Source of the DNA: an uncultured Acidobacteriota bacterium
Lineage (GTDB): Bacteria; Acidobacteriota; Thermoanaerobaculia; Multivoradales; SZUA-115
Direction of reading: 5' to 3'
Assembly: GCA_963805975.1 (NCBI GenBank)
Contig: CAWDVR010000003.1
Location: 224,001 to 288,000 of the forward strand
Length of the DNA stretch: 64,000 bases
In this document: positions 9,841-50,290 of the stretch, in pieces
Layout: the number at the start of each line of letters is the position of its first letter
Position numbering within the stretch: position 1 is the stretch's first letter
Program-made: the position numbers and the translations under genes
Notes under the pieces: model-generated
Told to the model about the DNA's origin: nothing
What the model saw: only the letters and a program-made list of their open reading frames with translations
Databases searched by the model: none

Positions 9841-10617
9841 TCACCTGGACCGCGAAGCCACGGTCGTGCGCACGTTCAGGAAGACGACCAGCGAGCGAGA
9901 GAGCACCCCGGAGGTGCCGGTCAGCGAGAGCGCGTAGAGGCCAACCGGGGTGGAGCCCGAGGCAGAGACCCGCAGCTCGGAGGAGCCGCCCGGCGCGACG
10001 CTCGTCAGGGTCCACGCCGCCGAGCTGGCGGCCGGCAGGCCAATGACCGCGAGGCTGACCGGTTCGGTGAAGCCGAAGTAGCCGGTGACCGAAACGGTGT
10101 AGCCCACGTTCTCGCCCGGCGAGAAACTCTGCTGCGCGGGTGCCACCGAGAGCTCGAAGTCCGGCGTGCTGACCGCTCCGGTGACGTTGAAGCGGTAGGG
10201 AAGCTGCAGAGAGCTGGCGGTCTCGACGGTCACCTTGCCGTCGAAGGTGCCGGCCGCAGTGCTCTCCAAGCGCACGGAGAAGGGGGTGCTGCCTCCAGCG
10301 GGGATGACGGTCGAGGGCGGGTCTCCGATCTGGCTCCAGCCGGTGCCGCTGACCAGGCGGTCCGGAGAGAGCAGGGTCAGCTCCTGCGGCCCGTCGTTCC
10401 AGATCGTGAACTGGCGCGAAACGGGCACCGAGATGCCGGTGTCGGGGAAGGAGCAGGTGCTGCCCGGGACGACCGGGGAGCCGTCCCAGGCTTGGGTGAC
10501 TCGGATCGTCTGGCCGACGGAGGCAGGCGTGGCGAGAGCGAAGAGCGCGGCCACGCCGCCCAAGAGCAGGACTCTGGCTCGTTTGGGGGCTCGTGTGGGG
10601 ACTCGTGCGTGGCTCAT
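9841..10617 (-). CDS. Secreted Ig-like (choice-of-anchor D-like) protein
   Basis: RBS AGGAG; signal peptide; 'FPDT...SRQFTIWNDG...L', 'APGGSSELRV'; beta-rich. Confidence 0.6.
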   Translation of the reverse strand: MSHARVPTRAPKRARVLLLGGVAALFALATPASVGQTIRVTQAWDGSPVVPGSTCSFPDTGISVPVSRQFTIWNDGPQELTLLSPDRLVSGTGWSQIGDPPSTVIPAGGSTPFSVRLESTAAGTFDGKVTVETASSLQLPYRFNVTGAVSTPDFELSVAPAQQSFSPGENVGYTVSVTGYFGFTEPVSLAVIGLPAASSAAWTLTSVAPGGSSELRVSASGSTPVGLYALSLTGTSGVLSRSLVVFLNVRTTVASRSR

Positions 10618-10755
10618 CAGCGGCCTCTCCTGAAGGTAGGGCCGGGCCGAGGGCGCGAGGGCACCCATGCCGGCCCGGACGGTCTCCATCAAGAGAGGCG
10701 CGAAAGGCGCGAGAGTTCTGTCAGGCGGATCGGGCCGGCTTGCTCGTTCCGGCGA

Positions 10756-11775: not shown

Positions 11776-11823
11776 GACTGTGGTCTCGAAAAGGTTCAGA
11801 GGTTTTTGAAACCCGCGGAGAGT

Positions 11824-13002
11824 CTAGCCCAACGCCGCGGAGGGCGTCAGCCGGCCCTTGAGCGCCAGCAGCGGCCCCTCGAAGCAGCGGAACGAGAGCG
11901 CCGCCAGCCCTACCGTCAGCCCGATCGCCAGGAAGTAGTAGGCCGGGTAGAAGAGCCAGGCGTTGCCCGTCCACCAGGCGCTGTGCTGGAAGAGCCAGGA
12001 GGTCGCGTAGACCGCGATCATGTGCAGCATGTAGAGGCCGTAGGAGATCTTCCCCAGCCACTCGGCCGCCGGGTTGCCGAGCCGCATCCGCCGCCGCGGG
12101 TTGGCCCCCACCTCGACCACCAGCCAGGTGAAGAGGCCGAGCTGCGCCAGCTCCTCGAGCCACCAGGGCATGGGCCAGAGGTCGACGAAGAAGTACTGCG
12201 CCAGAAACAGCCCCAGCGCCCACTGCAACCAGGGCCGGGTGAAGATCGGCAGCGCCAGGAACGCCTCCCGCCGCGTGTGGAGCGCCCAGGCTGCGAGCGC
12301 GCCGGCGGCCATGAAGTGGAACTTGAGCTGGTCGAAGAACTTCACCGCCCAGTCCAGGTGGAAGGGGTTGAGCCGGTTCACCAGGTAAGCGGCGAAGGAG
12401 ACGGCGAGCACGGCCGCCGCGATCCGCGGCAGCCGGTGGTGCCAGCGCTTCATCACCGGCGCCCAGGCGAGGTAGAACTGCTCCTCGATGCCGATCGACC
12501 AGGTGGGGTTGAGCAGGCCGCCCACGGTGTAGAGGCTGTTCATGAGGTTGGGCAGGAAGAACACGTAGAGGAAGACGGCGAGCGCCGGGTGGTACTCCAC
12601 CGGGTAGGGGATGCCCAGCCAGGGCAGCAGCGCGTTGTAGAAGAAGAGGCCGAAGGCGATGGTGGCGAAGTAGAGCGGCCAGATGCGCACCATGCGCCGC
12701 AGGTAGAAAGCGCGGACGTCGATCGTGCCCTGTCTCTGCTGCTCCGCGAGCAGCAGGTAGGTGATGAGGAAGCCGGAGAGGGTGAAGAAGAAGGACACCG
12801 CCGGCGCGCCGCGGAAGAAGAGAGCGCCGGGGGCCGCGTTCGGCAGGCCCAGGCTCCCCTGGTTCATGGGGATGTGGCCGATGACCACGAACAGCGCGGC
12901 GTAGGCGCGCAGGCTGTCGAGGCCGGGGAAGCGCGTCGTCGCCGTGTCCCTGGGATGGAGCTCCGCGGCGGGCGGCCCGAGCCGAGCATTGGTGGCGGTC
13001 AC
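11824..13002 (-). CDS. Acyltransferase-3 (OafA-like) membrane O-acyltransferase
   Basis: LDSLRA, FFTLSGFLI, RRMVRIWP, WSIGIEEQFY, LGKISYGLY; GTG start overlaps upstream stop. Confidence 0.9.
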   Translation of the reverse strand: MTATNARLGPPAAELHPRDTATTRFPGLDSLRAYAALFVVIGHIPMNQGSLGLPNAAPGALFFRGAPAVSFFFTLSGFLITYLLLAEQQRQGTIDVRAFYLRRMVRIWPLYFATIAFGLFFYNALLPWLGIPYPVEYHPALAVFLYVFFLPNLMNSLYTVGGLLNPTWSIGIEEQFYLAWAPVMKRWHHRLPRIAAAVLAVSFAAYLVNRLNPFHLDWAVKFFDQLKFHFMAAGALAAWALHTRREAFLALPIFTRPWLQWALGLFLAQYFFVDLWPMPWWLEELAQLGLFTWLVVEVGANPRRRMRLGNPAAEWLGKISYGLYMLHMIAVYATSWLFQHSAWWTGNAWLFYPAYYFLAIGLTVGLAALSFRCFEGPLLALKGRLTPSAALG

Positions 13003-13727
13003 GGGCGGACGAAGAGGGCGTCGAGTTGGAGGACCCGCCCGCTCGCGTGGTCGACCAGCGCCGGCTCGGTCGAGAACAGCGAGAAGCCGAGAGCGTCGAG
13101 GCGAGCCACGACCTCCGGCAACAGCGGCGATCCCGTGTAGAGCGGCACCGTGGAGAGCTCGAGCTCCAGGCCGCAGGCGCGTTCGATCGTGCGCGGGGCG
13201 CCGTCGAGGGCCTTGAGCTCGGAGCCTTGCAGGTCCAGTTTCAGGACCAGGCTGCCGGAGATGCTGCGCTCCGCGAGCAGCCCGTCGATCGTCCGTACGG
13301 GTACCCGGAGAGGGACGGTCCTCTGCCAGCCCTCGGTGCCTGAAGCGCCGGAGGCCGTGAAGAGCGAGCTGACCTCGGCGATCTCGCTGGCGTAGAGCGT
13401 CGCCTCGCCGGCCTCCTCGCCGAGCGCGACATTGACGGCGCGCCAGGCGGGATCGTTTCGGCACGCCTCCGCGAGATCCGCGAACGCTCCCGGCAACGGT
13501 TCGACGGAGAGGATCTCGCCACGGTATCCCAGACGGCGGATCTGGCGCGCGTACTGGCCGCGGTTGGCTCCGCCGTCGAGCACGAAGCCCACGGCCAGGT
13601 CGGCGAAGAGCTTGGCCCGCCGCAGCTCGTGCTGCCGCAGATGGCTGTAGGAAACCACGTCGTAGCCGGCGCGACGAAAGAGGCCGCGACAGAAGTCTCG
13701 CGTTGCTGCCCGGGCGCGCTGGATCAT
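12999..13727 (-). CDS. FkbM-family methyltransferase
   Basis: LDGGANRGQY, SVEP, LKLDLQGSE, QLDALF. Confidence 0.9.
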   Translation of the reverse strand: MIQRARAATRDFCRGLFRRAGYDVVSYSHLRQHELRRAKLFADLAVGFVLDGGANRGQYARQIRRLGYRGEILSVEPLPGAFADLAEACRNDPAWRAVNVALGEEAGEATLYASEIAEVSSLFTASGASGTEGWQRTVPLRVPVRTIDGLLAERSISGSLVLKLDLQGSELKALDGAPRTIERACGLELELSTVPLYTGSPLLPEVVARLDALGFSLFSTEPALVDHASGRVLQLDALFVRP

Positions 13728-13768
13728 GATGTGCGGGTGCTCGGGGGTCTGCGGGTGCTCGGGTCCGC

Positions 13769-14659
13769 TCAGCGATAGTGCTCGCGGCAGTAGCGGATCA
13801 CGGCGCGACGACCCTGGAGCTTGTCGTCGAGCTCGGACCGCCGGTCCGGGTAGATCCAACGGCCGAGGCGCAGAAACAGGGCCTCGAGGGAGAGGCGGCC
13901 GGCGACCGCCCACCGTACCAACGTGGGGAAGCGGATCTTGCCATACTTGGTGAGCAGCAACCACCGCGCCTTGTAGAACCGCAGGACCCGATGGCTCGCC
14001 TTCTGCGGCGTGCCGGAGCCCTCGTGGAAGGCGACGGCGCCCGGCAGGATGGCGACCTTCCAGCCCCGCCGCCAGGCGTTCATGCACAGGTCGTGGTCGA
14101 GGTCCAACCAGTCGAGCCTTTCGTCGAAGCCTCCCAGCTCCTCGAAGGCCCGCCGCCGGATCGCCATGGCACAGGTGTAGACACAGAGGCGCTCGCTGCC
14201 GCCGCGAGGGAACCAGCGGAGCCACAGCGCGTGGAGCCTCTGGCCCAGCACCAGCGAAGCCTGGCCGGGCTCGGGCTCCGCGCTGCCGGTCGCGCGGCCG
14301 TGCCGGTCGACGGTGGCAAAGCCCGCGATGGCGAGCTTCGGATCGGCCAGGAAGGCGTCGCGCACCGGCGCCGTGAAGTCGTGGAGGGGGTAGGCGTCGG
14401 AGTCGAAGAGCACCACGAGATCAGTGTCGAGCCCGGCGATGGCGAGGTTCAGCGTCTTGACCAGGCCCAGGTTCGCGCGGTTGACCACCAGCTCGACCCG
14501 CGAGTCGATGGCCGGCGGCCGCGGGATCGTCGAGGCATCGTCGTGGAGCACCACGCGGTCTATGGCTGCGCCCTGGACGAGGACCTTCTCGACACAGCGC
14601 AGAGCGATGTCCCAGGTGTTGTAGTTGGTGACGACGACGCCCAGTGAGAGGGTCTCCAT
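13769..14659 (-). CDS. Glycosyltransferase family 2
   Basis: VVVTNYN, DDAS, FDSD, LGGFDE. Confidence 0.9.
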   Translation of the reverse strand: METLSLGVVVTNYNTWDIALRCVEKVLVQGAAIDRVVLHDDASTIPRPPAIDSRVELVVNRANLGLVKTLNLAIAGLDTDLVVLFDSDAYPLHDFTAPVRDAFLADPKLAIAGFATVDRHGRATGSAEPEPGQASLVLGQRLHALWLRWFPRGGSERLCVYTCAMAIRRRAFEELGGFDERLDWLDLDHDLCMNAWRRGWKVAILPGAVAFHEGSGTPQKASHRVLRFYKARWLLLTKYGKIRFPTLVRWAVAGRLSLEALFLRLGRWIYPDRRSELDDKLQGRRAVIRYCREHYR

Positions 14660-14683
14660 GGCTCGGCCGCGAGCTGATCTGCC

Positions 14684-15493
14684 TCAGCCCGGCGCGCGGC
14701 TCCACTCCCGGACGGCTTCGCTGCGCACCAGGTGGAGAATGGCGCTCGGAAGCTCGGGGTCGGAGAGCTTGGCGAGGTGAAAACCGCGCCAGCCGAGCAG
14801 GACCTCCACCAACCGCTCCAGGGGATAGACGGTGGGGTGGTACTCCAGGGCGACCGCGTCCAGGCGGGCGAGGTCGGCCTCGCCCAGGGCCTCGAGGATG
14901 GCGAGCTCACTGCCTTCGCAGTCGAGCTTGAGCAGGCGCACGCGCTGCGGAAGCGCCGCGAGGAGGGTCGAGATCGAGCGCGTCTCCACCTCCCGGCCGG
15001 CGTCGTAGGCCACGCCCGCCGCGCGGGCGAAGGCCGGCTCCAGGGTGCTCATGCCCCCGCCGTGGGCCGTGGTCTCGAGGAGAGTCGCGCTGCCGTCGCG
15101 GCCGGTGACCGCGGCGCGGTGGGCCGCGATCCTACTTTTGAAACCGTTGCCGGCGATGTTGCGCTCCAGGAGCGCGAAGACGCGCGGCGAGGGCTCGAAG
15201 GCGATCACTCGCGCGCCCCGCCAGGCGAAGTAGCAGGACGCGAAGCCATGGTTGGCGCCGATGTCGAGCACCAGGTCGCCCGGCCGCACCGGCACCATGG
15301 GCACGTCGTAGAGACGGGCGTGGAAGACGTCTCCGAGGATCCGATCGGCACCGTTCAGGCAGCGGAAGGTGAGGTCCGTGGCGCGATCGGTGACCGTGAC
15401 CTCGCGCCGGCCGAAGAACCGCTGCGCCGCCAGCCAGAGCGGGCGGCGGTAGCTCATGGAGCCCTTGGCGAGGCGATAGAGAGCGGCGCGCAT
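14684..15493 (-). CDS. FkbM-family methyltransferase
   Basis: LDIGANHG, IAFEP, LKLDCEGSE. Confidence 0.9.
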   Translation of the reverse strand: MRAALYRLAKGSMSYRRPLWLAAQRFFGRREVTVTDRATDLTFRCLNGADRILGDVFHARLYDVPMVPVRPGDLVLDIGANHGFASCYFAWRGARVIAFEPSPRVFALLERNIAGNGFKSRIAAHRAAVTGRDGSATLLETTAHGGGMSTLEPAFARAAGVAYDAGREVETRSISTLLAALPQRVRLLKLDCEGSELAILEALGEADLARLDAVALEYHPTVYPLERLVEVLLGWRGFHLAKLSDPELPSAILHLVRSEAVREWSRAPG

Positions 15494-15534
15494 CGATAGT
15501 CAGAATAGCAGCAGGATTTGGCCGTCACCGGCCG

Positions 15535-18171
15535 TCAGGCCTGCTCCGCCGCGATGACGTAGCCCACGGGGAGGAACACGTCCTCGTAGCCCGCCGCGCG
15601 CAGCGCCAGGCGGACCCAGCGCTTCACCGGGTTCCGCGACCGCTCGAGGTGGGGCAGGAAGCGCAGCCGTTGGAAGCCGGCGTGGCGTAGCAGGTACTCG
15701 AGCTCGCCCCGGGTGTAGGTGATCTCGGTGGTGGGAGTGGTGCGGGAGAGCTCGAGCGCGTTGGCGCGCTGCCGGCGGATGTGGATCAGCGGCGAGGGGC
15801 TCTCGATCACCACCAGCACGCCGCCGGGTTTGAGCACTCGGCGGATCTCGAGCAGCACCTTGATCGGCGCCAGGGAGTGATGGATGGCGGCGATCAGGAA
15901 AGCGGCGTCGAAGCTGCCGGCCTCGAACGGCACCGCCTCGAAGCTCGAGGCGGCGAAGGTCACCTTGTCGAGGCGGCCCTCGTAGTGGCGGATGACCGCC
16001 GTCCCCACGCGCCGCAGGAACTGCTCGGAGAGATCGAGCGCCACCACCTCCTCGACCGCGTCCAGCTTCGAGAGGAAGGCCGTGGCCCAGCCGCTCCCGG
16101 CGCCGAGGTCGATCACCCGTCCGCGCACCCGCGACGCGATCTCCGGGTCGGCGAGCGCTTGGTGGAAGGCGCGGTGCGCGCCCGGCTCGTGCTGCTCGAC
16201 GACCTTCACCCACGACTCGGCCGCATCGCCGCCCAGCCGCGCCGCCACCTCTTCGGCCGCGCCGGACTCGTAGCCCATCATCTCGCGGTGCTCGGGATCA
16301 TCGGGCGAGGGGACGCGGCCGCGGACGAACCGCGGCCCTGCCCCGGTGCCCGCCGTGTGTTGGCTGCCGGGCCGAGGCTCCCCGACGGTGGCGCCGCCGG
16401 GCGGAGGCACCCGTGTCACCACCACGTCGCCCAGCACCAGGCGGTCCATGCGGGTGCGCAGGAAACAGTCGATCGCCTCTTCCGGGCGGTTGACGATGGG
16501 CTCGTTCTCGTTGAACGAGGTGTTGAGCACCATGGGCACACCGGTCGCCGCCGCGAAGGCCGAGATCAGCCGGTGGTAGCGCGGGTTGGCCTCACGCGAC
16601 ACGGTCTGCAAACGGCCGGTGCCGTCGGCGTGGGTGACGGCGGGGATCGCGGCGCGCTTCTCCGGCCGGATGGGGTAGACCTTGAGCATGAACGGGTCCG
16701 GGTAGTCGAGAGTGAACCAGTCGCCGGTCGCTTCTTCGAGCACCGAGGGCGCGAACGGGCGGAACGACTCGCGGCGCTTGATCTTGCGGTTCAGGATCTC
16801 CTTCATGTCCGGCCGCCGCGGGTCGGCGAGGATCGAGCGGTTGCCGAGCGCCCGCGGCCCCCACTCCGAGCGGCCCTGGTACCAGCCCACCACCTCGCCG
16901 GCGGCGAGCGCCGCGGCGGTCTCGCGCGCCAGGCGCTCCTCGTCGCGGACCGTCGCGACCGTCACCTCGCCCCAGCGGCCGTCGCCGCTCTCGGAACCGG
17001 GGACGCGGTCGACCAGGGCGCGGCGAACCTCCGCCTCGCCGTAGGCCGGGCCCCAGTAGGAGTGCTCCATCACGAAGCCGCGCGGCCGGCCGAGCACGGC
17101 GTGCTCCACGTAGAGCGCCGCGCCGAGCGCCGTGCCGGCGTCGCCGGCCGCGGCCTGCACGTAGATCTCCTTCACGTCCGTCCGGTCGAACAGCTTGCCG
17201 TTGGCGAGCGAGTTGAGCGCGCAGCCGCCGGCGAGCGCCAGCCGCTCGAGGCCGGTCCGCGCCTGGAGCGCGCGCACCAGGGCGAAGAAGCGTTCCTCGT
17301 ACACCTGCTGCAGCGAGGCCGCGAGGTCTTTGTGGCGCTGGGTGAGGTCGTCTTCCCTGCCGCGCGTGGGGCCCAGCAGCTCGGCGAGCGCCGGCGTGTA
17401 GACCAGGCCGAGGGTGGGGGAGCCGTCGTCCCAGCTCATGTCGACGCCCTCGGAGAGGTGGCGGAAGTAGGCGAGATCGAGGCGGAAGGTGCCGTCTTCG
17501 AGCGCCGGCACCACGCGCCGCAGCTCGGCCGCGTACCGGGGCTCCCCGTAGGCGGCGAGGCCCATCACCTTGTACTCGTCGCCAAAGCCCACGAAGCCCA
17601 GGAACTGGGTGATGGCGGTGTAGAAGAGGCCCAGGGAGTGTGGAAAATGGACGCGCTCCAGCACGTCCAGCCGAGGGCCGCGGCCGGTGGCGAGCATGGT
17701 GGAGACGAAGTCCCCGAAGCCGTCGACCGAGAGGCACATGGCCTCTTCGAAGGGCGAGCAGAAGAAGGCCGAGGCGAGGTGGGCCAGGTGGTGCTCGACG
17801 GGGTGGATGGGCGGCATCCTGCCGCCGTCTCCGAAGAGCTCGGCGAGCCGCGACTCGAGCGAGGCCACGGCGGCGAGGTTCCTCGCCCGCCCGGCCGCCC
17901 GGCCGAGGCTCCGCGGATGGGTCAGAGCCAGCCACGCCTTGCGCGCGAGATAGGCCCGCGGCTGGCGCGAGACGGCTACCGCGTCCAAGCCTCCGAGGCC
18001 GGCACCGAGCTCGGCCAGGCAGTGGCGGACGGCCTCCTCGGGAAAGCCCGCCCAGTGCTTCACGCGGCGGAAGCGCTCCTCCTCGACGCCGGTCACGAAG
18101 GCGCCGCCGGCGAGGGCAACCGCGGAGGCGTCGGCGTGGAAGGCGTTGATGCCGAGGATGCGCGTGGTCAT
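15535..18171 (-). CDS. Carbamoyltransferase fused to a class I SAM methyltransferase (878 aa)
   Basis: ILGINAFHADAS, EHHLAHLASAF, GPRALGNRSIL, NTSFNENEP, then linker and IDLGAGSG...SFDAAF...VLKPGG in one frame. Confidence 0.85.
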   Translation of the reverse strand: MTTRILGINAFHADASAVALAGGAFVTGVEEERFRRVKHWAGFPEEAVRHCLAELGAGLGGLDAVAVSRQPRAYLARKAWLALTHPRSLGRAAGRARNLAAVASLESRLAELFGDGGRMPPIHPVEHHLAHLASAFFCSPFEEAMCLSVDGFGDFVSTMLATGRGPRLDVLERVHFPHSLGLFYTAITQFLGFVGFGDEYKVMGLAAYGEPRYAAELRRVVPALEDGTFRLDLAYFRHLSEGVDMSWDDGSPTLGLVYTPALAELLGPTRGREDDLTQRHKDLAASLQQVYEERFFALVRALQARTGLERLALAGGCALNSLANGKLFDRTDVKEIYVQAAAGDAGTALGAALYVEHAVLGRPRGFVMEHSYWGPAYGEAEVRRALVDRVPGSESGDGRWGEVTVATVRDEERLARETAAALAAGEVVGWYQGRSEWGPRALGNRSILADPRRPDMKEILNRKIKRRESFRPFAPSVLEEATGDWFTLDYPDPFMLKVYPIRPEKRAAIPAVTHADGTGRLQTVSREANPRYHRLISAFAAATGVPMVLNTSFNENEPIVNRPEEAIDCFLRTRMDRLVLGDVVVTRVPPPGGATVGEPRPGSQHTAGTGAGPRFVRGRVPSPDDPEHREMMGYESGAAEEVAARLGGDAAESWVKVVEQHEPGAHRAFHQALADPEIASRVRGRVIDLGAGSGWATAFLSKLDAVEEVVALDLSEQFLRRVGTAVIRHYEGRLDKVTFAASSFEAVPFEAGSFDAAFLIAAIHHSLAPIKVLLEIRRVLKPGGVLVVIESPSPLIHIRRQRANALELSRTTPTTEITYTRGELEYLLRHAGFQRLRFLPHLERSRNPVKRWVRLALRAAGYEDVFLPVGYVIAAEQA

Positions 18172-19037
18172 CGCGAGCTGGGGTGCGGGTCTTCCGCCAG
18201 GATCTCCGCCAGCCGCACGTCCACCACCAGGCGGAACCAGAAGGCCTGGAGAAAATGGAAGAGGAAGCCGGTCCTGCCGTCGAGAAAGCCCAGGAGGAAG
18301 ACGTAGCGGTAGACGAAGTAGAGGAACGGGCGCAGGAAGAGTGGCATCCGGTACCAGCGCTCCTTCAGCCACAGCACGCGCTCGTCCGGGGTGCCGAAGA
18401 ACCGGCCCCGCACCTTGAAGGCCAGGCCCTCGCGGCGGCGCTTCGCCTCCTCCTGGGCGAAGGCCTCGGCGTAGCGCAGGTGCTTCTCGAGGTAGAAGAG
18501 GATCGCCTCCTCCTTGCGGTTCCATTCCTCGAGCGGCGCCCGGAGCCTCGCCACCGGCCCGCGCACGTAGACCCGCGTGTCCTGCTCCACCGGGTCGAGC
18601 TCGCCCTTGGCGCGGCGGAAGAGCTTCAACAGGAACTTGCCGCCGTAGCCGCCGAAGCGCAGCCGCTTGCCGCGGAACACCTGCACGCGCCGGATGTAGA
18701 AGCCGTCGGCCGGGATCTCCGGCTGCGCGAAGAGCTCTTCGAGCTCGGCCTTGAGCTCGGGGGTGAGCGCCTGGTCGGCCTCGAGGATCAGCACCCATTC
18801 GTGGCGGATCTCCAGGTGGTCGAGCCCCCACTGAAAGATCCACGGGATGATGCGCCCGTGCTCGTAGGGGAGGTTCACCACCTCGTCGGCATAGCGGCGG
18901 GCGATCTCGACCGTGCCGTCCGTGGACTCGGAGTCGAGCACCAGGATCTGGCCGGCGAAGCCGTGCACGCTGGCGAGCGAGCGGCCGAGGTTCGCTGCTT
19001 CGTTGCGGGTGGTGACGAGGACAGTGACCGGAATCAT
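18168..19037 (-). CDS. Glycosyltransferase family 2
   Basis: MIPVTVLVTTRNE, LDSESTDGT, WVLILEAD, LGFLDG. Confidence 0.9.
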   Translation of the reverse strand: MIPVTVLVTTRNEAANLGRSLASVHGFAGQILVLDSESTDGTVEIARRYADEVVNLPYEHGRIIPWIFQWGLDHLEIRHEWVLILEADQALTPELKAELEELFAQPEIPADGFYIRRVQVFRGKRLRFGGYGGKFLLKLFRRAKGELDPVEQDTRVYVRGPVARLRAPLEEWNRKEEAILFYLEKHLRYAEAFAQEEAKRRREGLAFKVRGRFFGTPDERVLWLKERWYRMPLFLRPFLYFVYRYVFLLGFLDGRTGFLFHFLQAFWFRLVVDVRLAEILAEDPHPSSR

Positions 19038-20171
19038 CGCTTCACGCTGGCGGCGGCGCGAAGGATACCCCGCCAGGTGGCCGCGTAGTCCCAGCGGGCC
19101 AGGATCGCGCGGTTGCTGCGCTCCACCTCCGCGGGCACCAGCCGGGTGAGGCACTGCTCGACCCGCGTCGCGAGCTCGGCCGCGTTGCCGGCCACGTACA
19201 CGAAGCCGTTCTTGCCGGGGTCGATCAGGTCGTGGCCGGCGCCCACCCGCGAGGAGGCGATCACCGGCAGGCCGCAGGCCATGGCCTCGGGCACGGAGAC
19301 CCCCCAGCGCTCCTCGGCCGCGGCGTGCACGAAGAGGTCCGAGGCGGCATAGAGGCTGGGCAGCTCGGCGAAGGGCACGTAGCCGAGGAAGCGCACCCGC
19401 GAGGAGAGCCCGTGCTGCTGCCGCGAACGCTTCGAGGCGCGGCTGGTCGGGGCCGTCCCCGGCCACCGCGAGCCAGGGCCGCTCGCCTTCGTAGAGGAGG
19501 AGCGCGGCGAGCAGGTCCCACGGCGCCTCGCGGGCGTTGAGCTTGGCCACCACCGTCACCACCGGCCCCTCCCCCGGCAGGCCGTGGCGCGCGCGGTAGG
19601 CGCCGCGCTCCCCGGCCGCCAGCGCCGAGCGCTGGCGGAAGCTCTCGACGTCCACGGCGTAGGTGAAGTGCGCGATCCGCTGCGGCTCGATGCCGAAGAA
19701 CGTGAGGTAGCGGCTGCTGAGCGTGCCCACGCCGAAGAAGAGGTCGTAGAGGCGGGTGAGGAGGGCGCGGTAGAGCAGCCGCTTCACCCGCCGGCGGCGC
19801 CAGGAGTCCGCGAACTCCACCGAGTCCAGCCGCAGGCCGGTCGCCACCCCTGCGCGGCGGGCGGCGAGCGCCGCCCCGAGGTAGGCACGATGGGTATAGC
19901 CGTTGGTGATCAGGAGGTCATACTGCTCCCGGGCGAGCTCCTGCTTCCAGAACCGCCGCCGCCCCTGGGCCGGGAGCACGGCGTGGTCGTAGCCACCCAT
20001 CAGGTCGAAGCCCCAGGAGACCCGGCGCCCGAGCTCGGGGTCGAAACGCGCCTCGCCGCTCTCGGCCGTGGTGTAGATCACCCGCAGCCGGTGCTCGGGG
20101 TCGGACGCGGCGAAGCGAAAGAAGGGCACGTCGAACTGCGTAGGCCGCTCGACCAGAAAGCCGATTCGCAT
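19034..20171 (-). pseudogene. GT4 glycosyltransferase with a frameshift near 19420 (pseudogene or sequence error)
   Basis: N-terminal half (to AGDGP...LEAF) and C-terminal half (VRFLGY, EERWGVSVPEAMACGLP) lie in different frames. Confidence 0.8.
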
Positions 20172-27458: not shown

Positions 27459-27462
<4 letters not shown>

Positions 27463-29219
27463 AACCTTCCCTGCACGAGGCGCCGCGTCTCGGGGGCGCG
27501 GAGGATCTGTGGCACCTCGAGCGGCCGCAGGCCGGCGATCTGCTCGACCACGTGCTCGGCAGACATCATCGCCCCTTCCTGCCAGCCCGGCAGGGTCGAG
27601 ACCTGGTCGCCCACCACGTAGAAGCGCCCGTCGGGCGACAGCAGCTCGGCGTAGGCCTTGCGGTCGTCCGCGTCGTCCTCCCACTCGGCCCAGCCGCCGC
27701 GCTGGAAGGGCACGTTCTGCCAGGCGATCGAGAGCCCCAGCTCATGGGGCACGACGCCCGGCTCGGCGAACTCCGGATGGAGCTTGAGCGCGCCCTTGCG
27801 CGCCTCGACCAGCCGCTCCTCGAGGCTCATCTTGCCCAGGCGGACGGCGTTGTCGTCGTAGTTGTAGGTACCGGTGAGCGTGCCCTTCGCCGTGAAGTAG
27901 TCGTTCGAGGGGTACCACATCTGGGTGATGAGGTCGTCGATCCAACTGATGCCGCCGTAGATCTGGTTCTTGTCGTCCTCCCAGAACCGCCGGTTGGCCT
28001 GCCAGCCGACCTTGCAGGTGGGAGCGAACTTGCCGTGGGCCACGGCCCAGGCGAAGGGCTCGGAGAAGTTGACGGGGATCTCCTGCAGCACGGGCAGCGG
28101 GATGTTGCTGATGCAGAAGTCGGCGCGCCGGCTGCAGCGCTCGCCGCCGAACTCGTCGCGGAAGAACACCTCGACGCCGTCGTCCGCGAGCTTGATCTCT
28201 TCCACCACCGAGCGGTACTGGACGAGCGAGCCCACCTGCCGCTTGAAGCCCTCGACGATCTGGTCCATGCCGCCCACCGGCTGGAAGAGCGTCGCCTGCC
28301 ACTCGTAGTCCACCGGCTGGTAGAAGCGGTGCTGCCAGAACTGCGACTTCAAGAGCTCGCCGAGCGCGAGCGGCGTCTCCGGCGTGCAAGCCGTGTAGAC
28401 GGTGAGCGGGTGCTCGCAGCCCGCGCGGGTGGAGCCCGCGTAGGCGAAGCAGGCCGGGCACTGGCCGGCGCAGGTGAGGCAGCCGTCGCAGCTCTTGCCG
28501 CAGGTCGCGCAGGCGGTGTGGTCCTCCGAGCACTTCGTGCACGCCTTGCTCTCGCCCAGGTCGCCGAAGACCTTGAGCAGGCAGAGCAGGCGGTCGCGGT
28601 CGCCCTCGTCGAGCTCCTGGTCGAGCGCGCCCTTGCGCACCGCCTTCGCGAGCAGCTCCGCCACGTAGCCGCGGGTGTCGTTGGCGATCTGGCGATTGAT
28701 CTGGCGCTGGCCGCCCCAGGCGTCGCCGGTCTGGAAGAGGTTGGCGGTGGTCTCCATCACGTAGACCTCGAGCGGCACCCCCAGCTCGTGGCAGTAGTGC
28801 AGCACCCGCCGGTGGTGGTAGGGCAGCCGCCCCGGCCCCATGTTGAGGTAGAGCCCGCGGTCGAACTCGCACCGCTGCCGGGTGACGCCGTGCTCCTTGC
28901 TCTGCTCGGTGATCACGCTTCCCTGGCGGGCGGTCAGGCTGCGGCCGCCGGCGCGGTTGTGGGCCTCCAGGATCTCGCACTGGTAGCCGGCGCGGGTGAG
29001 CTCGTAGGCGGCCGTCAGGCCGCCGATGCCGGCGCCCAGGATCAGTACCTTCTGGCCGGCGCCGGAGCCGGCGGCGAGGCGCGGGGTGCCGGCCCAGGCC
29101 CCCGGCAGGTTGATGAGGCCGAGAGCGGTCATGGTCTCGTAGACCGCCGCGGCGCCGCCCGCCCGGCCGACCATCTCGAGGAACTTCCGCCGCGTGGTGC
29201 CGCCTGTCCACTCGCGCAT
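27459..29219 (-). CDS. Tat-exported flavin monoamine/L-amino-acid oxidase with Cys-rich insert
   Basis: TRRKFL twin-Arg signal; GAGIGG; EAHNRAGGR; GWQEGA; RBS GAGGAGG. Confidence 0.88.
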
Positions 29220-29410: not shown

Positions 29411-29890
29411 CTAGGGCGTGGAGATCAGCTCCACCAACCAGCCACTGCCCGCGCCACCCTCTCCAGCCTTTGCCGCTTGGACCAGCCTCACGGTGCAGTT
29501 GACGTCGGTGATGGGCTCCGAGCTCTCGAGCACCGCACCGGTCTTCGTTCCGTTGTCGGCGTAGAAAGTCACCACCGAACCAGCGGTCCAGGTGAGGGGG
29601 CAGGGGCTGAAGCTCATGGCTGGCAGGTTGTAGCGCTCTCCGGAATTGATCGAGCAGGCACCATTGCGCGCACCCCGTACGCCGTAGAGGACGAGCGCCA
29701 GGCCGGCCAGAACCAGCCCGAAGCAGAAGAGGGTGAGGTTCCCTCGCTGGCCCGTCTCCATCAGGAGGCAGGTCGCCCCGGCCAGCTCCATCAGCGCACC
29801 GGTGATCACGATCCCGGTGGCGATCGGGGGCGGGGGCGGGTGGGTCACACTCCAATCGGCAGGGGTCGAGCTACCGTTTCCAACAGGCAT
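29411..29890 (-). CDS. Hypothetical membrane protein
   Basis: Strong RBS AGGAGGAG; one or two hydrophobic segments; no recognised motif. Confidence 0.55.
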   Translation of the reverse strand: MPVGNGSSTPADWSVTHPPPPPIATGIVITGALMELAGATCLLMETGQRGNLTLFCFGLVLAGLALVLYGVRGARNGACSINSGERYNLPAMSFSPCPLTWTAGSVVTFYADNGTKTGAVLESSEPITDVNCTVRLVQAAKAGEGGAGSGWLVELISTP

Positions 29891-30025
29891 GATTTCTCCT
29901 CCTTCGCTTCAGAAAAACGCTGATCGATAAGGGTCAACAGACATCAATCTCCATCACCTGCGTCCGAACCTGCGCCGCCGATGAGGGCATTGTGCCGATT
30001 ACTGTCTCTTGTAACCGCTTCAACG

Positions 30026-32770
30026 TTACCTTGAGACGCCGGTCAGCACGAATCCCGCCCAGTCTTCGGGCCGGACGTGGGCGCCGTCCTGCAAGAGGTC
30101 GAGCTTGGCCTGGCGCAGCGCCTCGGCGGCATCGCCGTTGGCCAGGAGGTGCGAATAGAAACGCTTCATGAGCACCGCCGACGGCACGTCCTGGACGTTC
30201 CAAAGGCTGACCAGCAGGCGGCGGGCGCCGGCGTAGAAGAAGCCTCGCGTCAGTCCGACGAAACCCTCGCCCTTGATCGGCTTGCCGCGCCCCGAGCTGC
30301 AAGCCGAGAGCACTACCAGCTCGGCTTCCAGCTCGAGGTTGAAGATCTCCCCGAGCTGCAGGACCCCGTCCTCCGCCGAGGGCAGCCCCTGAGAGAGCAC
30401 CAGCCCGAAGTGGTCGGGGTCGGTCTCGTCGGTGAAGGCGTGGGCGGCGAAGTGTAGATAGCGGGTGCCTTTGATCTGCGGGTTGGCCTTGACGTTCTCC
30501 TCGCGCGCGTCTCGGCCCAGGTAGACGGAGGTGGGGCGCGGCGCGAACAGCCCGGCGATCGACTCCACCTCGTCGCGCGAGGCCGCGAGCCTGTCCAGCC
30601 GGAAGCGCCCGTCACGGTCGAAGAGGCCGCGCTCCGGGCCTCCGGGAGAGGGGGCGAGGGCCGCGGACGGCGAGGGCACCGGATAGCTGGGATCGCCGAA
30701 GCCCACGAAGACGGGCTGGCCCGGATCGGCAGGCCCCGGTTTCGCGGCCCGCTGTCGCGCGGGTCGGGACGCCTGGCCCGCCAGCACGGTGGCGGACGGG
30801 GCGTAGCTCACCGTCCAGCGCTCGACCAGGTACCGGGGCGAGCCCGCGGCCGTGACCTCCGTGACCAGGGCCTCGAAAGGAAAAGAGAAGAGAACGTCGT
30901 CGGGAACGACGATCAGCCGCTCGACCCGCTCGAGCGCCTCTGTGGCCCGTGCCGGGAGCAGGGACTGATAGAGCTCGCCGGCGAGGATCGCGTACTGCTC
31001 CGGGGCCGTCCGATCGTCGAGCAGAGCGTCGAGCGCCGCCTGCACCCGGCGGCGCAGGTCCCCGGTGCGGCCCAGGTCGTAGGTCTCGAGCCCGCTGCTG
31101 CGCAACAGGAAGAGATACGCGTGCTCCTCGCCCAACGCGTACTCGAGGAGCGCGCTGTCCTTGTCCAAGGCCAGCCGTTTCTCGATCTGCGCCAGGCCGA
31201 GCGGTTCCGGGTACCGGACCTCGGCGTAGCGGGCGTTGCTCTCGCGGATCGCGGAGGCCAGCGCACGCCGTTGCGCTTCGAGCTCGTCCAGGTCCGCTCG
31301 CACCGCCTGCACCTCGGCCCGCGGCGCGCCGGCCCCGCGTTTGCTCAGCCAGAGCGCCTGCGCCCCGGATCGTTGCTGCTCGAGCCGGCGCTCCTGCTCC
31401 TTGAGCTCCGGTGAGACGCCGCTCTCGACGTCGACCTGCGCCTCGGCGAGCAGCCCGAGAAGGCCCCGCGCCCGCGCGCGCTCACTCTCTTCGAGCGCTC
31501 TCGCCCACGCACCCCGGCCCATCAGCAGATCGATGTACTCGTCGAAGTAGCGGCGCAGGAAGGCCACCTGCGTGGCGCGGGTCTCGGGGTCCGGCGCGCT
31601 GCGGTTGGCCGACTCGAACAGATCCAGCGCCCGCCGCATCTCGGCCTCGGCGGCGGCCTTGTTCCCCAGGTCCCGCAGCACGCGTGCCGAGCGCGCCAGG
31701 AGGAAGGCTTCGAGGCCGGGGTCCTGGGCGCGCTCGACCGCGGGCCGGGCCTCGTCGAGGCTCACCCGCGCCGCGCCCAAGTCGCCCGCCAGGCGGAGGG
31801 TCTCCGCCAGCTCGCCGGCCGAGAGGATCTCGCCGGCGGAGTCCTCGAGCGCCTGTCGCTGGCGCATCGCCTCGCGCAGGGTGGCCTGGGCGTCGGCCAG
31901 CTTGCCCTGGTCGCGCTGCGCAACCCCCAGCGCGTGCAGCACGGAAGCCTTGGAGGACGGGCTCGACAACCCTGCCGAGAGATCACGGGCCCTGGTGAAG
32001 TGCTCCAGGGCCCGGCCCGGCTGGCCCGCCTGCCTCTCGAGCCAGCCCAGCGCGACCAGAATTTCCACCTGCAAGCCGGTCTGCCCGAGCCTTTCGAGGC
32101 GACCCAGGGCCGTTTGGAAGCGTTCCCGCGCCTCCTCGAAGCGGCCGAGAGAAAACTCCAGGTTGCCCCAGTTGTAGCCTACGTGAGCTATCAGATCCTC
32201 GTTGTCGGCGCTCTCCGCCCGCTCCGCTGCGTCTCGGTAGTAGCGCTCGGCATCCTTGGCTCGGCCCAGCCGGTACGCGTTGGCACCCAGCCCGTTGAGC
32301 GCGCCCCCCTCTTCCTCGGCCAGGCCGGCCGCCTTACAGTCCTCCAGGGCCTCGAGCCACCAGCGAGCCGCCTCCTCGGAGCGTTCGTGGTTTCGGAGCA
32401 GCGTCCCGATCCGGTTCTTCGCCTTGCACCCCCCGGCCCGATCGGAGGACCGCCCGGCGACCTCCAGGGCGTGCCGGTAGATCTGCTCGGCTTCGCTGTA
32501 CTGGCGTTCCCTCTGGTGGGCGATACCCTGTCCCAGGAGGCCTTCGATCTGGAGGGAGTGGTCGCTCGTCTGCCGAGCGGCTTCGGCGGCTGCCTCGTAG
32601 AGACCAATCGCCGTCGCGTTATCGCCCTTGTCGAGAACCTTTCTGGCCGCCGCCAGCAGGGTCGCGGCCGGGCGCGGGTCTTCCGGCGGCGAGCAGGCCG
32701 CCAGGGCTCCCGAGAGCAGGAGAAGGCTCCACACCACGGCTCCCGGCTGGGGTCGAAACCTTAGATTCAT
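30026..32770 (-). CDS. TPR-CHAT (caspase-like) protease with lipoprotein-type signal
   Basis: LLSGALAAC lipobox; TPR repeats; IVVPDDVL; LHFAAH (His) and LVVLSAC (Cys); VSLWNV; DWAGFVL. Confidence 0.9.
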   Translation of the reverse strand: MNLRFRPQPGAVVWSLLLLSGALAACSPPEDPRPAATLLAAARKVLDKGDNATAIGLYEAAAEAARQTSDHSLQIEGLLGQGIAHQRERQYSEAEQIYRHALEVAGRSSDRAGGCKAKNRIGTLLRNHERSEEAARWWLEALEDCKAAGLAEEEGGALNGLGANAYRLGRAKDAERYYRDAAERAESADNEDLIAHVGYNWGNLEFSLGRFEEARERFQTALGRLERLGQTGLQVEILVALGWLERQAGQPGRALEHFTRARDLSAGLSSPSSKASVLHALGVAQRDQGKLADAQATLREAMRQRQALEDSAGEILSAGELAETLRLAGDLGAARVSLDEARPAVERAQDPGLEAFLLARSARVLRDLGNKAAAEAEMRRALDLFESANRSAPDPETRATQVAFLRRYFDEYIDLLMGRGAWARALEESERARARGLLGLLAEAQVDVESGVSPELKEQERRLEQQRSGAQALWLSKRGAGAPRAEVQAVRADLDELEAQRRALASAIRESNARYAEVRYPEPLGLAQIEKRLALDKDSALLEYALGEEHAYLFLLRSSGLETYDLGRTGDLRRRVQAALDALLDDRTAPEQYAILAGELYQSLLPARATEALERVERLIVVPDDVLFSFPFEALVTEVTAAGSPRYLVERWTVSYAPSATVLAGQASRPARQRAAKPGPADPGQPVFVGFGDPSYPVPSPSAALAPSPGGPERGLFDRDGRFRLDRLAASRDEVESIAGLFAPRPTSVYLGRDAREENVKANPQIKGTRYLHFAAHAFTDETDPDHFGLVLSQGLPSAEDGVLQLGEIFNLELEAELVVLSACSSGRGKPIKGEGFVGLTRGFFYAGARRLLVSLWNVQDVPSAVLMKRFYSHLLANGDAAEALRQAKLDLLQDGAHVRPEDWAGFVLTGVSR

Positions 32771-32907
32771 GGCTATCGTCTTCTGCCCTCACTCTACTGC
32801 ATCCAAAGGCCTGCCCCGCTGCCCGTCACCGGGGCGTAACCGCCTTTCTCCGTTTGACTTCCCGCCGCCTCTCGGAGAGCATCGCGAACCAGAGGAGCGC
32901 TCCCAAC

Positions 32908-33453
32908 GTGCGGACCGAAGAGGCGAAGCTCATCACCAGCTTCCTGGCCGGCGAGGCCGAGGCGGTGTCCCAGATCGACGGCTGGATCCGGCAGGCGGCC
33001 TCGCCGTTTCGCCGGCGCCTGGCCGACCATTGGGACGACGCGCTCCAGGACGTTCGCCTGGAGGCCACCCGCCTGCTCAAGGACCAGCGCTTCCGGGGCG
33101 AGTCCAGCCTCAAGACCTATCTCTGGCGCGTGACCTCGAACGCCTGCGTGGACCGGGTGCGCGGCCAGCGCAAGGTGCAGTGGGAGGACATCGAGGCGGT
33201 CGACCAGCGTGGCGAGGGAGCGCGGGCGAAGGCGGCCGAGCGCGGGCGCGCGGGCGAGGCCAAGGATCTGGCGCTGCGCGTGCTGGCCGAGATGTCCGAC
33301 GAATGCCGCCAGCTCTGGCGGATGCTCTTCGAAGGCCTTTCCTATCAGCAGATGAGCCAGAGCCTGGGGGTCGCCGAGGGAGCGCTCCGGGTGCGGGTGC
33401 TGCGCTGCCGCCGCAAAGCCCTGGTGGTGCGCGAGGGTCTCCTGGGCCAATAG
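32908..33453 (+). CDS. ECF sigma factor
   Basis: RBS GAGGAG and GTG start; DALQDV, FRGESSLKTYLWRV..N.CVD; region 4 'LSYQQMSQSLGVAEGALRVRVLR'. Confidence 0.88.
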   Translation: MRTEEAKLITSFLAGEAEAVSQIDGWIRQAASPFRRRLADHWDDALQDVRLEATRLLKDQRFRGESSLKTYLWRVTSNACVDRVRGQRKVQWEDIEAVDQRGEGARAKAAERGRAGEAKDLALRVLAEMSDECRQLWRMLFEGLSYQQMSQSLGVAEGALRVRVLRCRRKALVVREGLLGQ

Positions 33454-33515
33454 CCCCGCCGCTGGTAACGATTGCGGGCGGGGGTGGCCTAAGCTGTCGG
33501 AGAGGTGAGAACCAC

Positions 33516-34328
33516 ATGAACTGCGACAATGCAATGGAATTGCTGCCCTGGAGGGCCAACGGCAGCCTGGCCGAGGTCGAGAGGCGGGAGCTGGACGAGC
33601 ACCTGAGCGGCTGCCCGGCCTGCCAGCGGGAGATGGCCGAGACGCGGCTCGCGGCCGAGATCTACGCTGCGCACCCGACCGCCGACCAGCTCTACGACCT
33701 GGTCGCCGGCAAGGCTGCACCGTCCGGGAGCGAGCTGATCGAGCGGCACGTGGCCTCCTGCTCCACCTGTGCCGAGGAGCTGTCGATGATCCGCGACAGC
33801 CAGGGCCTGCTGGCCGACGCCGAGGAACGTGACCGGCGCCGGGAGGGCTCGGTGGTCCGCGGCCCCTGGGGCGTGCGGAGCCTCGCGCCGGCGCGGAGCT
33901 GGGTGCCGCTCGCCCTGGCGGCGGCCATGGCGCTCGCCGTGCTGGGCCCGGTGGTGGTCTGGGTGAGCAGCCACTCGGGCTGGGGAACGCCGGCCGTGAT
34001 GGCGGCGAAGACCGTGGACCTGCCGGTCCAGATCCTGCGCGGGGGCGAGCCCGAGCCCGCCACGCCGCCCGTGATCCGCCGCGGTGATGGTCCGCTCGTG
34101 CTCCACCTCCACAACCAGGGCTGGGACCTGGCGCCGGGGGTCACCGTGGAGCTGATCGACGAGGCGGAACGGCTGACGCTCGTGCCGCAGGAGCAGGTCG
34201 AGCAGGGCCCGGGCGCGGTCCGGGTGCGCATCGACGCCGGGAAGCTCCCTCTGGGGCTCGTCACGGTGAGCGTGCTCGACGCCGAGCGCCAGCCGCGCGG
34301 CGAGGCCAGTTTCCGCGTCGAGCGGTAG
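33516..34328 (+). CDS. Membrane anti-sigma factor with two zf-HC2 zinc motifs
   Basis: HLSGCPAC and HVASCSTC, one TM helix, extracytoplasmic C-terminal domain; follows the ECF sigma. Confidence 0.85.
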   Translation: MNCDNAMELLPWRANGSLAEVERRELDEHLSGCPACQREMAETRLAAEIYAAHPTADQLYDLVAGKAAPSGSELIERHVASCSTCAEELSMIRDSQGLLADAEERDRRREGSVVRGPWGVRSLAPARSWVPLALAAAMALAVLGPVVVWVSSHSGWGTPAVMAAKTVDLPVQILRGGEPEPATPPVIRRGDGPLVLHLHNQGWDLAPGVTVELIDEAERLTLVPQEQVEQGPGAVRVRIDAGKLPLGLVTVSVLDAERQPRGEASFRVER

Positions 34329-34427: not shown

Positions 34428-35630
34428 ATGCCAGCCCACCGCCTCATTCTTCGCGCGGCCCTCTGTGCCACCTTCGCCGCGCTCTCTGCCTGGCCCGCCA
34501 CGGCGGTCACCTGCGGCCTGGACCGTGTTCCCGGCGCCACCCTGCTGGTGCCCTACTTCGAGCTCGACACCACCAACCCCAACTCGTTGACGACGCTCCT
34601 CTCGATCAACAACGCCGACCAGACCGGCACCATCGTGCAGGTGACGCTGTGGAGCGACCTCGCGGTGCAGGTGGTCAGCTTCAACATCTACCTCTCGGGC
34701 TACGACGTCCAGACCATCAACCTGAGCGACATCGTGGTCCGCGGCGTGTTCCCGGTCACCGACCCGCCGGCTTCCTACACGAGCTGCCCCGCGACCCTGC
34801 CGGTCTTCCCGTCGATCTACCCGCCCATGGTCCCGTACCTCCGGGACGCGCTCACCGGCCAGAGCGTGGTCTACCCCGGCTCCGTGAACCCGGTGCAGGT
34901 CGGCGTCGACCACGGAGACGCGATGGCGCGCGGCTTCATCACCGTGGACGCCACCAACGCCTGCTCTTCGGACACCGCCAGCGATCCGGGCTACTGGGGG
35001 ATCGGCGGCACCGGCGTGCCCAGCAACCGCAACATCCTGTGGGGCGACTACTTCTACCTCGATCCCGCGAACGACTTCTCCCAGGGCTTCAACATGGTGC
35101 AGCTCGAGGCCGACGGCACCCTGGGCGCCGCCGACTACACCTTCTACCGCCGCTTCTCCGGCGGGGCCGACCAGCGCGAGCCTCTCGCCACCAACCACGC
35201 GGTGCGCTACGTTTCGGGCGGTGCGTTCAGCGGCGGCACCGAGATCTACTACTGGCGCGACCCCAAGCGCACGGTCACCCCGTTCACCCCCGGGACCCTG
35301 CCGGCGCCCTTCCCGCTGGGCAGCCTCGAGACCCTGATCTTCGACGAATCGGAGAGCTCGGCCACCTCGCTCGCCACCCCGTTCCCCTACGCCTCGGGCA
35401 AGGTGGTGGTGGGCACGGACCTGCCGGTGCCCTTCAATTTCGGCTGGATCCTCTTCAACATGAACACGCCGGTGGCCGGCAGCCAGGTTCCCTTCGAGCC
35501 CGTCGCCCAGAGCGCGCTGGCCTACACCTTCCGCGCCTTCGGGCGGTTCGCGATCGGTGTCGACTCGACCACGCTGGACAGCGCCTGTGACGCGGACCTG
35601 GGGCCCTTCCCCATGCCGCCGCAGCCGTAG
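34428..35630 (+). CDS. Secreted hypothetical protein
   Basis: RBS GAGGAGG; signal peptide; 'TCGLDRVPGATLLVPYFE', 'NILWGDYFY'; four Cys in the mature part. Confidence 0.8.
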   Translation: MPAHRLILRAALCATFAALSAWPATAVTCGLDRVPGATLLVPYFELDTTNPNSLTTLLSINNADQTGTIVQVTLWSDLAVQVVSFNIYLSGYDVQTINLSDIVVRGVFPVTDPPASYTSCPATLPVFPSIYPPMVPYLRDALTGQSVVYPGSVNPVQVGVDHGDAMARGFITVDATNACSSDTASDPGYWGIGGTGVPSNRNILWGDYFYLDPANDFSQGFNMVQLEADGTLGAADYTFYRRFSGGADQREPLATNHAVRYVSGGAFSGGTEIYYWRDPKRTVTPFTPGTLPAPFPLGSLETLIFDESESSATSLATPFPYASGKVVVGTDLPVPFNFGWILFNMNTPVAGSQVPFEPVAQSALAYTFRAFGRFAIGVDSTTLDSACDADLGPFPMPPQP

Positions 35631-50047: not shown

Positions 50048-50290
50048 ATGAGCGAGCTGGATTGCCTACTTCAAGACGTGCAGCAGAACCCTCGGCTCCT
50101 GGACGGTTTGAGGAGTCGGCTCGGCGACACCAACGATCTGCGGCGCTGGGCCCACGAGCAGGGCTACGAGCTCGACGAAGGGGAGGTGGCCGTGCTCCGG
50201 GAGAACGGCCGGGAGCTCTCGGACGAGGAGATCGACCAGGCGGCGGCCGGAGCATGGGCACCGACGCCATCGGCCGGCGACACCCAGTAG
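50048..50290 (+). CDS. Nif11-like leader RiPP precursor (80 aa)
   Basis: Helical leader ...AHEQGY...ELSDEEIDQAAAG, then core AWAPTPSAGDTQ. Confidence 0.75.
   Translation: MSELDCLLQDVQQNPRLLDGLRSRLGDTNDLRRWAHEQGYELDEGEVAVLRENGRELSDEEIDQAAAGAWAPTPSAGDTQ

Follow-up and report, generated by a model that had tools for sequence, protein, structure and literature searches.

A predicted exported TPR-CHAT protease encoded beside an ECF sigma factor and its membrane anti-sigma in Acidobacteriota: a candidate split counterpart of DdvA/DdvS

Anti-sigma factors of the RseA type are removed by regulated intramembrane proteolysis, in which DegS cuts before RseP (PMC11506125). In Myxococcus xanthus an anti-sigma and a TPR-CHAT protease are joined in one protein, DdvA (PMC11506125; PDB 8ROT, 8RW5, 8RLZ). 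Its authors propose autoproteolysis by the CHAT domain as the site-1 step, and truncated DdvA was lost in an RseP-dependent manner (PMC11506125). Here we describe a stretch of 64,000 nt from an uncultured Acidobacteriota bacterium of the class Thermoanaerobaculia (contig CAWDVR010000003.1, positions 224,001 to 288,000; hereafter the window), in which a TPR-CHAT protease, a sigma factor of the extracytoplasmic function (ECF) type and a single-pass anti-sigma are encoded by separate neighbouring genes (Table 1). According to the reading that we favour and hold to be somewhat probable, a signal would cause the CHAT protein to cut the anti-sigma after Arg175, whereupon RseP would release the sigma factor for transcription of genes for secreted proteins and extracellular contractile injection systems (eCIS).

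The window module has in common with DdvA-DdvS an ECF sigma factor, a zinc-type anti-sigma domain, one transmembrane helix (TM), a TPR-CHAT part with the His/Cys pair that in the window is predicted to be extracytoplasmic, a GTAA −35 element and RseP as the proposed second step. Its anti-sigma has the N-terminal HxxxCxxC domain and the single TM of DdvA-like proteins, is encoded after an ECF gene as they are, and gave a weak profile match to the DdvA N-terminus (8RLZ, E 0.028). Because the N-terminal 317 aa of one fused Thermoanaerobaculia protein match DdvA residues 3-291 (E 5e-10), the module is best read, on these alignments, as a split DdvA/DdvS. DdvA-like proteins are reported from Myxococcota and one Comamonas only (PMC11506125); the DdvA-like fusions of the present class lie outside that range. 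Unlike DdvA, the window protease and anti-sigma are two genes on opposite strands, and the anti-sigma carries a tandem N-terminal domain and an immunoglobulin (Ig)-like outer domain. The DdvS promoter motif is GTAAn16CGT (PMC6061681), whereas that of the window is GTAAC-N17/18-GCCT (−10 GCCT, not CGT), and the window sigma gene stands behind a housekeeping-type promoter. Neither CBASS (cyclic-oligonucleotide-based antiphage signalling) nor CRISPR (clustered regularly interspaced short palindromic repeats) adjoins the module, and the predicted targets are dispersed genes for secreted proteins and eCIS. Membership in the DdvA type itself was rejected, there being no single chain of zinc-binding anti-sigma (ZAS) domain, TM and TPR-CHAT and no GTAAn16CGT/CBASS/CRISPR regulon. 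DdvA-like fusions of about 1,050-1,150 aa were seen beside ECF genes at loci L146-L151 (genomes G042, G096, G065, G075 and G090).

A TPR-CHAT protein is paired with a sigma factor also in the type III-E craspase (Csx29/Csx30/CASP-sigma), where Csx29 cuts the sigma-holding Csx30 and releases the sigma factor (bioRxiv 2023.06.23.546230). Craspase is cytoplasmic, is activated by RNA through Cas7-11 and cuts after Met or Leu (PMC11506125); the window CHAT differs in having an export signal. Among the eight proteins scanned there was no craspase-type PADLOC match beyond generic TPR, the rest of the genome not having been searched for cas genes. The export signal and the lack of such a match locally led us to reject membership in this type. 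CHAT/TPR genes are conserved beside the ECF54 sigma factors, for which proteolytic control has been proposed; that group is described as having no anti-sigma and as confined to Actinobacteria (PMC7826278, PMC8999054). In the ECF groups of Casas-Pastor 2021, CHAT domains appear under ECF54 only, among the matches listed (PMC7826278 supplement). Assignment to ECF54 was rejected as well, since an anti-sigma is present and the relatives are Acidobacteriota/Thermoanaerobaculia. With RseA-type systems the module shares the single-pass anti-sigma and an RseP in the genome; unlike them, it would rely for site 1 on a dedicated cysteine protease of the caspase fold, whose gene stands next to that of each sigma factor. 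A literature search that left out most subscription journals turned up the known systems only and no published description of a split CHAT/anti-sigma system. An earlier note on this DNA had named the system its top candidate for an undescribed one; this is too strong, the same logic having been proposed for fused DdvA (PMC11506125), a precedent that the note did not mention and that is closer than craspase.

The CHAT domain (PF12770) was matched at residues 596-911 with 228 bits (E 1.8e-67; cut-off 24) and is preceded by TPRs (TPR_12 match). Both the lipoprotein signal and the intact His/Cys motifs claimed in the earlier note are there: positive charges and a hydrophobic stretch lead to the lipobox LAAC26, and the motifs HFAAH777 and LSAC824 are invariant among relatives. 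From the signal peptide and the intact dyad the protein is predicted to be exported and competent for proteolysis. In the structure model (predicted local distance difference test, pLDDT, 89) nine TPR-like pairs of helices are joined to the CHAT domain by a long helical linker. DdvA was its closest fold, followed by Csx29 and also separase, and DdvA was the best solved CHAT match by sequence too. Signal-like N-termini were recognized by eye in the CHATs of 15 syntenic orthologues, and a crude test for export scored a hydrophobic stretch at the N-terminus of 44/60 linked CHAT frames versus 28/107 other long frames. Glu734 and Trp857 are kept in 128/128 aligned CHATs and Asp861 in 126/128. By analogy with MALT1 and gingipain (PMC4357240), the positions of these three seem to correspond to those of the acidic and aromatic residues at the S1 site in clan CD proteases specific for Arg, and would suit an Arg in P1. 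The variable N-terminal domains of orthologous CHATs suggest diverse ligands. Named relatives of the protein include several Acidobacteriota.

Judged from gene neighbourhoods, the CHAT, sigma and anti-sigma genes form a conserved module, and the synteny that the earlier note had put forward as a check held at the orthologous loci, across the class and within the genome. The anti-sigma was matched in 33/41 relative genomes. A locus scan with a single protein sequence found one locus. A CHAT gene is adjacent in 15 of the 20 best foreign orthologous loci, in 12 of them divergent as in the window. The class-wide profile search matched 49/151 genomes, from which 76 places were fetched. CHAT lies within 3.3 kb in 37 of the 40 loci whose match spans the outer domain, and nearby in 3 of the 20 that match the N-terminal part only; the remaining 16 comprise six ZAS-TM-TPR-CHAT fusions beside an ECF gene (in five genomes of the class), three loci with an adjacent CHAT and seven without. 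The host genome (5.36 Mb, 70% GC) yielded 22 CHAT matches, corresponding to about 20 genes, and relatives yielded up to 44 matches. Its 51 ECF genes were taken from 50 of 57 sigma-family matches, after exclusion of seven primary-sigma-like or partial ones, and one from gene calling. Eleven of them lie at most 3.1 kb from a CHAT domain, in several gene orders, where simple arithmetic predicts about one; the next nearest distances are 6.2 and 17.5 kb. A single-TM anti-sigma is present at the 11 loci, and most of their CHATs have an N-terminal hydrophobic signal. The loci are kin rather than independent, so these figures stand as counts and not as tests. Two CHAT domains of the host genome are each split over two frames (C3:12746-13559, C6:55536-56355), by frameshift or assembly error.

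The anti-sigma agrees with the earlier description (HxxxCxxC twice, a single TM, an extracytoplasmic domain): the motifs lie at residues 29 and 78, the TM spans approximately residues 130-150, and the outer domain of 120 aa was modelled as an Ig-like sandwich (pLDDT 90). This domain has no convincing Pfam family (no match for the window protein, four single weak matches among 62), and a fold search with it returned generic beta-sandwiches only (template modelling score about 0.5). Tandem zinc binding was rejected as the essential, conserved feature, because both motifs are intact in just 13/20 orthologues and neither in three.

The outer domain has one invariant arginine, Arg175, which the model places in the loop that follows the first strand. 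Together with Gly176 it is at least 90% conserved across 25 full anti-sigmas, and it is the sole invariant column in 62 outer domains of 20% mean identity, 56 of which have Gly or Ser behind it. An outer-domain profile search gave 4,789 clusters (50% identity) at E<=1e-10, some of them unrelated repeat proteins; among 131 short representatives drawn from the best 150 database matches Arg175 was the only outer-domain residue invariant in all. Of the ten other CHAT-linked anti-sigmas of the genome, selected by position, nine have R-G or R-S at a comparable place and the tenth has R-D, as judged by eye; outer folds of other kinds are among them. The linker of the fused proteins has an Arg without exception (8/8), which aligns, weakly (E 0.015), with DdvA V129-G133, part of the segment V129-P140 that is nearest to the catalytic dyad in cryo-EM (PMC11506125). 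The same Arg-Gly Ig domain forms the C-terminal end of P0168, an 801-aa protein with an NTPase-like part, a TM and pentapeptide repeats, which suggests a portable CHAT-cleavable module on other receptors. The CHAT-less orthologues L036, L039 and L127 have, in place of the Ig domain, a short tail that contains the motif 'DGFESG', and they lack the Arg-Gly loop.

The predicted promoters make CHAT look like a trigger rather than an output, since those of CHAT and sigma are of the housekeeping type and those before the anti-sigma and the small output gene are ECF-type. With GTG 32908, behind the ribosome site AGAGGAG, as the start of the sigma gene, the 137-bp divergent gap given in the earlier note is correct. 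TTG 32854, the start chosen by the ORF finder (ORF, open reading frame), was rejected, as this TTG belongs to the −35 box of the conserved sigma promoter. A scan with the E. coli promoter consensus found no sites, the sigma promoter at 32854-32882 included. GTAAC-N16/18-GCCT or GACT precedes the anti-sigma gene in the window and in 17/23 related loci, and the GTAAC...GCCT motif adjoins the locus of this sigma factor alone among the 51 ECF genes. A GTAAC right behind the CHAT stop and before the small gene occurs in 13/13 divergent relatives and in 0/5 loci arranged otherwise. It thus seems that CHAT and sigma are already there before induction and that anti-sigma and cargo are induced, as expected if CHAT were the trigger and new anti-sigma the reset. 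CHAT as a sigma-induced output was rejected, because none of 14 divergent loci has an ECF-type promoter directed towards CHAT or sigma. At locus L203 (genome G001) an ECF-type promoter of the window pattern precedes a sigma gene of the CHAT-linked clade; a cascade between modules is possible.

The same promoters bear on the idea that CHAT, once exported, processes the cargo of the sigma factor or acts on it as an effector protease (the small output protein, secreted proteins or other proteases), with sigma freed by ordinary DegS/RseP-type proteolysis. CHAT genes are indeed numerous, about half of those in the genome have no neighbouring ECF gene, five of the 20 orthologous sigma/anti-sigma loci have no adjacent CHAT, and SAVED-CHAT is a precedent for activating another protease (bioRxiv 2023.06.23.546230). 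We consider this idea quite unlikely nonetheless: no ECF-type promoter stands before CHAT (0/14), CHAT is found fused to the anti-sigma and not to cargo, the cargo varies while the anti-sigma Arg is constant, and the Arg-bearing domain is lost altogether in two of the five CHAT-less loci.

The sigma factor is the single copy of its type in the genome (E<=1e-20) and presumably uses GTAAC-N17/18-GCCT. The sigma factor in a named record from a Thermoanaerobaculia bacterium is 87% identical to it. A genome-wide search for GTAAC...GCCT[AG] found 17 intergenic sites at spacers 17 and 18 and no more than two for any one of 18 further spacers; when the pattern was relaxed there were 41 intergenic sites, some of them due to chance. 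In 18 genomes with a close sigma orthologue the motif occurred 192 times at the true and 96 times at the control spacing (157:90 without the own genus), compared with 127:126 in 23 genomes without one. Scanning of 35 proteins from 20 fetched stretches gave as predicted targets two subtilases, an astacin, tachylectin and laminin-G proteins, an acyl-carrier/ketosynthase pair, a polyprenyl synthase, and the sheath, tube, Pvc16 and baseplate genes of two eCIS loci. Ten of 53 sites from three relatives lie before homologues of predicted targets, two of these being the anti-sigma itself. The strict motif stands ahead of the sheath gene, or of the gene that opens the eCIS locus, at 7/16 loci of close-sigma genomes (twice in the host, and in four other genera) and at 0/14 loci from genomes without a close sigma; the relaxed look added one eCIS locus in the close-sigma group and two in genomes with a distant sigma relative. 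By these counts the eCIS link, predicted throughout, is real in part of the lineage and not universal. Short ORFs resembling precursors of ribosomally synthesized and post-translationally modified peptides were seen at window positions 50078-50287 (+), at L215, where the copy stands behind an ECF-type promoter, and at L025:920-1111.

In the proposed mechanism a presumed envelope or outside signal would activate the CHAT protein, which is presumed to lie in the periplasm, through its TPR or N-terminal region. The activated protease would cut the anti-sigma after Arg175, the predicted site, stripping the Ig domain of its first strand and leaving a stub of about 25 residues. RseP, which is encoded in the genome (TIGR00054, 304 bits, cut-off 147.55), would then cut the membrane helix and free the sigma factor to transcribe its predicted regulon, which comprises secreted proteins and contractile injection systems; the switch would be reset as the ECF promoter of the anti-sigma gene gives rise to new anti-sigma. 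The role of site-1 protease, which the earlier note had assigned to CHAT, is favoured by the linkage, the export signal, the intact dyad, the invariant Arg, the promoter logic and RseP, the cleavage itself being a prediction.

The invariant Arg is accounted for equally well if the loop is a pseudo-substrate docked in the CHAT active site, CHAT serving as a co-sensor or lid in complex with the anti-sigma; a signal would then free CHAT, and another protease or a conformational change would liberate sigma. Gingipain offers a precedent for an Arg loop that sits in the S1 pocket as an inhibitor (PMC4357240), and in DdvA the TPR-CHAT part blocks RseP sterically and catalytic mutants behave like wild type at rest (PMC11506125). 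Yet a lid would not need the His and Cys that are invariant in all 16 syntenic CHATs, the small residue behind the Arg fits a scissile bond, and the inhibitory Arg of gingipain is eventually cut (PMC4357240). We regard docking of this kind as unlikely.

Several observations weigh against cleavage of the anti-sigma by CHAT. R-G/S follows the TM in 61/61 CHAT-adjacent and in 22/25 other anti-sigmas, so its presence does not discriminate. The Arg is kept in the CHAT-less orthologues L022, L026 and L027, and also in L113 and L125; the genomes of the first three hold many CHAT genes, and cleavage in trans is possible there. Most aligned sequences came from profiles containing the Arg, a selection that favours the motif. 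The DdvA residue aligned to the linker Arg is Met, with Arg-Ser six residues further on, and infection with Mx4 brought no visible autoproteolysis by the CHAT domain of DdvA (PMC11506125). In a quick tree the CHAT-linked sigmas of the genome are not one supported clade, and five of the 11 form a supported clade without the window sigma. The strict promoter, moreover, precedes just 7/16 sheath loci of close-sigma genomes. Arg175 might simply be a structural Ig residue, the linkage reflecting shared mobility of envelope-signalling cassettes with no direct relation between CHAT and anti-sigma; R-G/S is common in GC-rich proteins, and the persistence of the Arg where CHAT is locally absent would fit. 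The similarly placed motif with other outer folds and in fusions, the linkage that persists while gene order varies and the very existence of fusions make this explanation highly improbable in our view.

Table 1. Features of the CHAT-sigma-anti-sigma module and adjoining genes (window coordinates)
Feature	Position	Strand	Basis
TPR-CHAT caspase-like protease, predicted lipoprotein, 914 aa	30026..32770	(-)	ORF list, Pfam, structure model
Signal peptide and lipobox LAA-C26 (Cys codon 32693-32695)	32693..32770	(-)	sequence
Catalytic His777 codon (HFAAH777)	30440..30442	(-)	invariant in 16/16 syntenic, 128/128 aligned CHATs
Catalytic Cys824 codon (LSAC824)	30299..30301	(-)	invariant in 16/16 syntenic, 128/128 aligned CHATs
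ECF sigma factor, 181 aa, start GTG 32908	32908..33453	(+)	TIGR02937 62.7 bits, cut-off 42.9
Anti-sigma, 270 aa: two ZAS-type motifs, one TM, Ig-like extracytoplasmic domain	33516..34328	(+)	sequence, model
Arg175-Gly176, predicted CHAT cleavage or docking site	34038..34043	(+)	conservation, model
Predicted housekeeping -10 (TAGAGT) for CHAT gene	32791..32796	(-)	similar hexamer in 10/14 divergent loci; short, weak
Predicted housekeeping promoter of ECF gene (TTGACT, 17 nt, GAGCAT)	32854..32882	(+)	pattern TTGAC-17-xAxxxT in 11/14 divergent loci
Predicted ECF-type promoter GTAAC-N17-GCCTAAG before anti-sigma gene	33465..33493	(+)	similar in 17/23 related loci
Second predicted ECF-type promoter GTAAC-N18-GACAGT, overlaps CHAT stop, faces small output gene	30000..30029	(-)	
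Small output gene, 159 aa: Pro-rich N-terminus, two hydrophobic segments, Cys-containing beta domain	29411..29890	(-)	
Secreted-looking protein, 400 aa, no family match in scan	34428..35630	(+)	translation

A CHAT domain as the site-1 enzyme of an anti-sigma has been proposed for DdvA but could not be put to the test there for want of the signal. In the split system enzyme and substrate are separate soluble pieces and the bond is named (Arg175-Gly176), so cleavage can be tested directly. If true, it would explain what the exported TPR-CHAT proteins, so greatly expanded in Acidobacteriota, are for, and would provide the contractile injection systems of these bacteria with a candidate for regulator and inducing switch. 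Beyond this, we entertain as a doubtful possibility that Acidobacteriota possess a large family of extracytoplasmic caspase-like receptors, in which every exported TPR-CHAT responds to a cue of its own by cutting a portable Arg-Gly loop on a membrane anti-sigma, the window one being the master switch of an attack programme. Such a programme would comprise the two eCIS, the subtilases, the astacin and the lectin-like secreted proteins, and its trigger would be contact with prey or competitors and not phage.

The small output gene is a fourth linked gene beyond the three of the earlier note, which did not mention the promoters either; its product had no match in the family scan, and similar proteins occupy the same position in 8/13 divergent relatives. 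The secreted-looking protein downstream of the anti-sigma is possibly read through from the anti-sigma promoter; its gene is absent from this position in the same-genus locus L021, and a paralogue encoded on contig C2 stands behind an ECF-type promoter of its own. Also near the module are an amine oxidase gene, an ABC-F gene and a gene that we take to be methionine synthase-like. The flavin amine oxidase (27459-29219, -), directly downstream of the small output gene, has a Tat-like (twin-arginine translocation) N-terminus and a Cys-rich insert with several CxxC, and is not at this position in L021. Two surface-polysaccharide clusters flank the region at 3388-19396 and 43593-63669, recognized by eye from carbamoyltransferase-, glycosyltransferase- and Wza/Wzc-like genes.

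Further observations concern other CHAT and ECF genes. Directly downstream of four host-genome CHAT genes lies a family of 290-370 aa with an N-terminal 'xxLRIYFxGLIAFVP'-like strand (C2:108678-109763, C2:359356-360372, C3:2913-4028, C1:227727-228596), and the N-termini of these four CHATs resemble the DdvA linker/scaffold. Some CHAT genes are flanked by secreted-looking proteins with caspase-like starts (peptidase C14-type, by eye; C3:609-2909, C3:28486-30510, C3:33737-35854), hinting at exported protease cascades. At L023:7233-8508 two tandem sigma copies precede one double-motif anti-sigma, the second copy with its own ECF-type promoter. Sixteen ECF genes of the host genome lie beside long genes interpreted as Ser/Thr kinase genes, and twelve of these sixteen group together with strong support; three closely related tandem ECF genes with no evident anti-sigma are found at C1:1249506-1251212.

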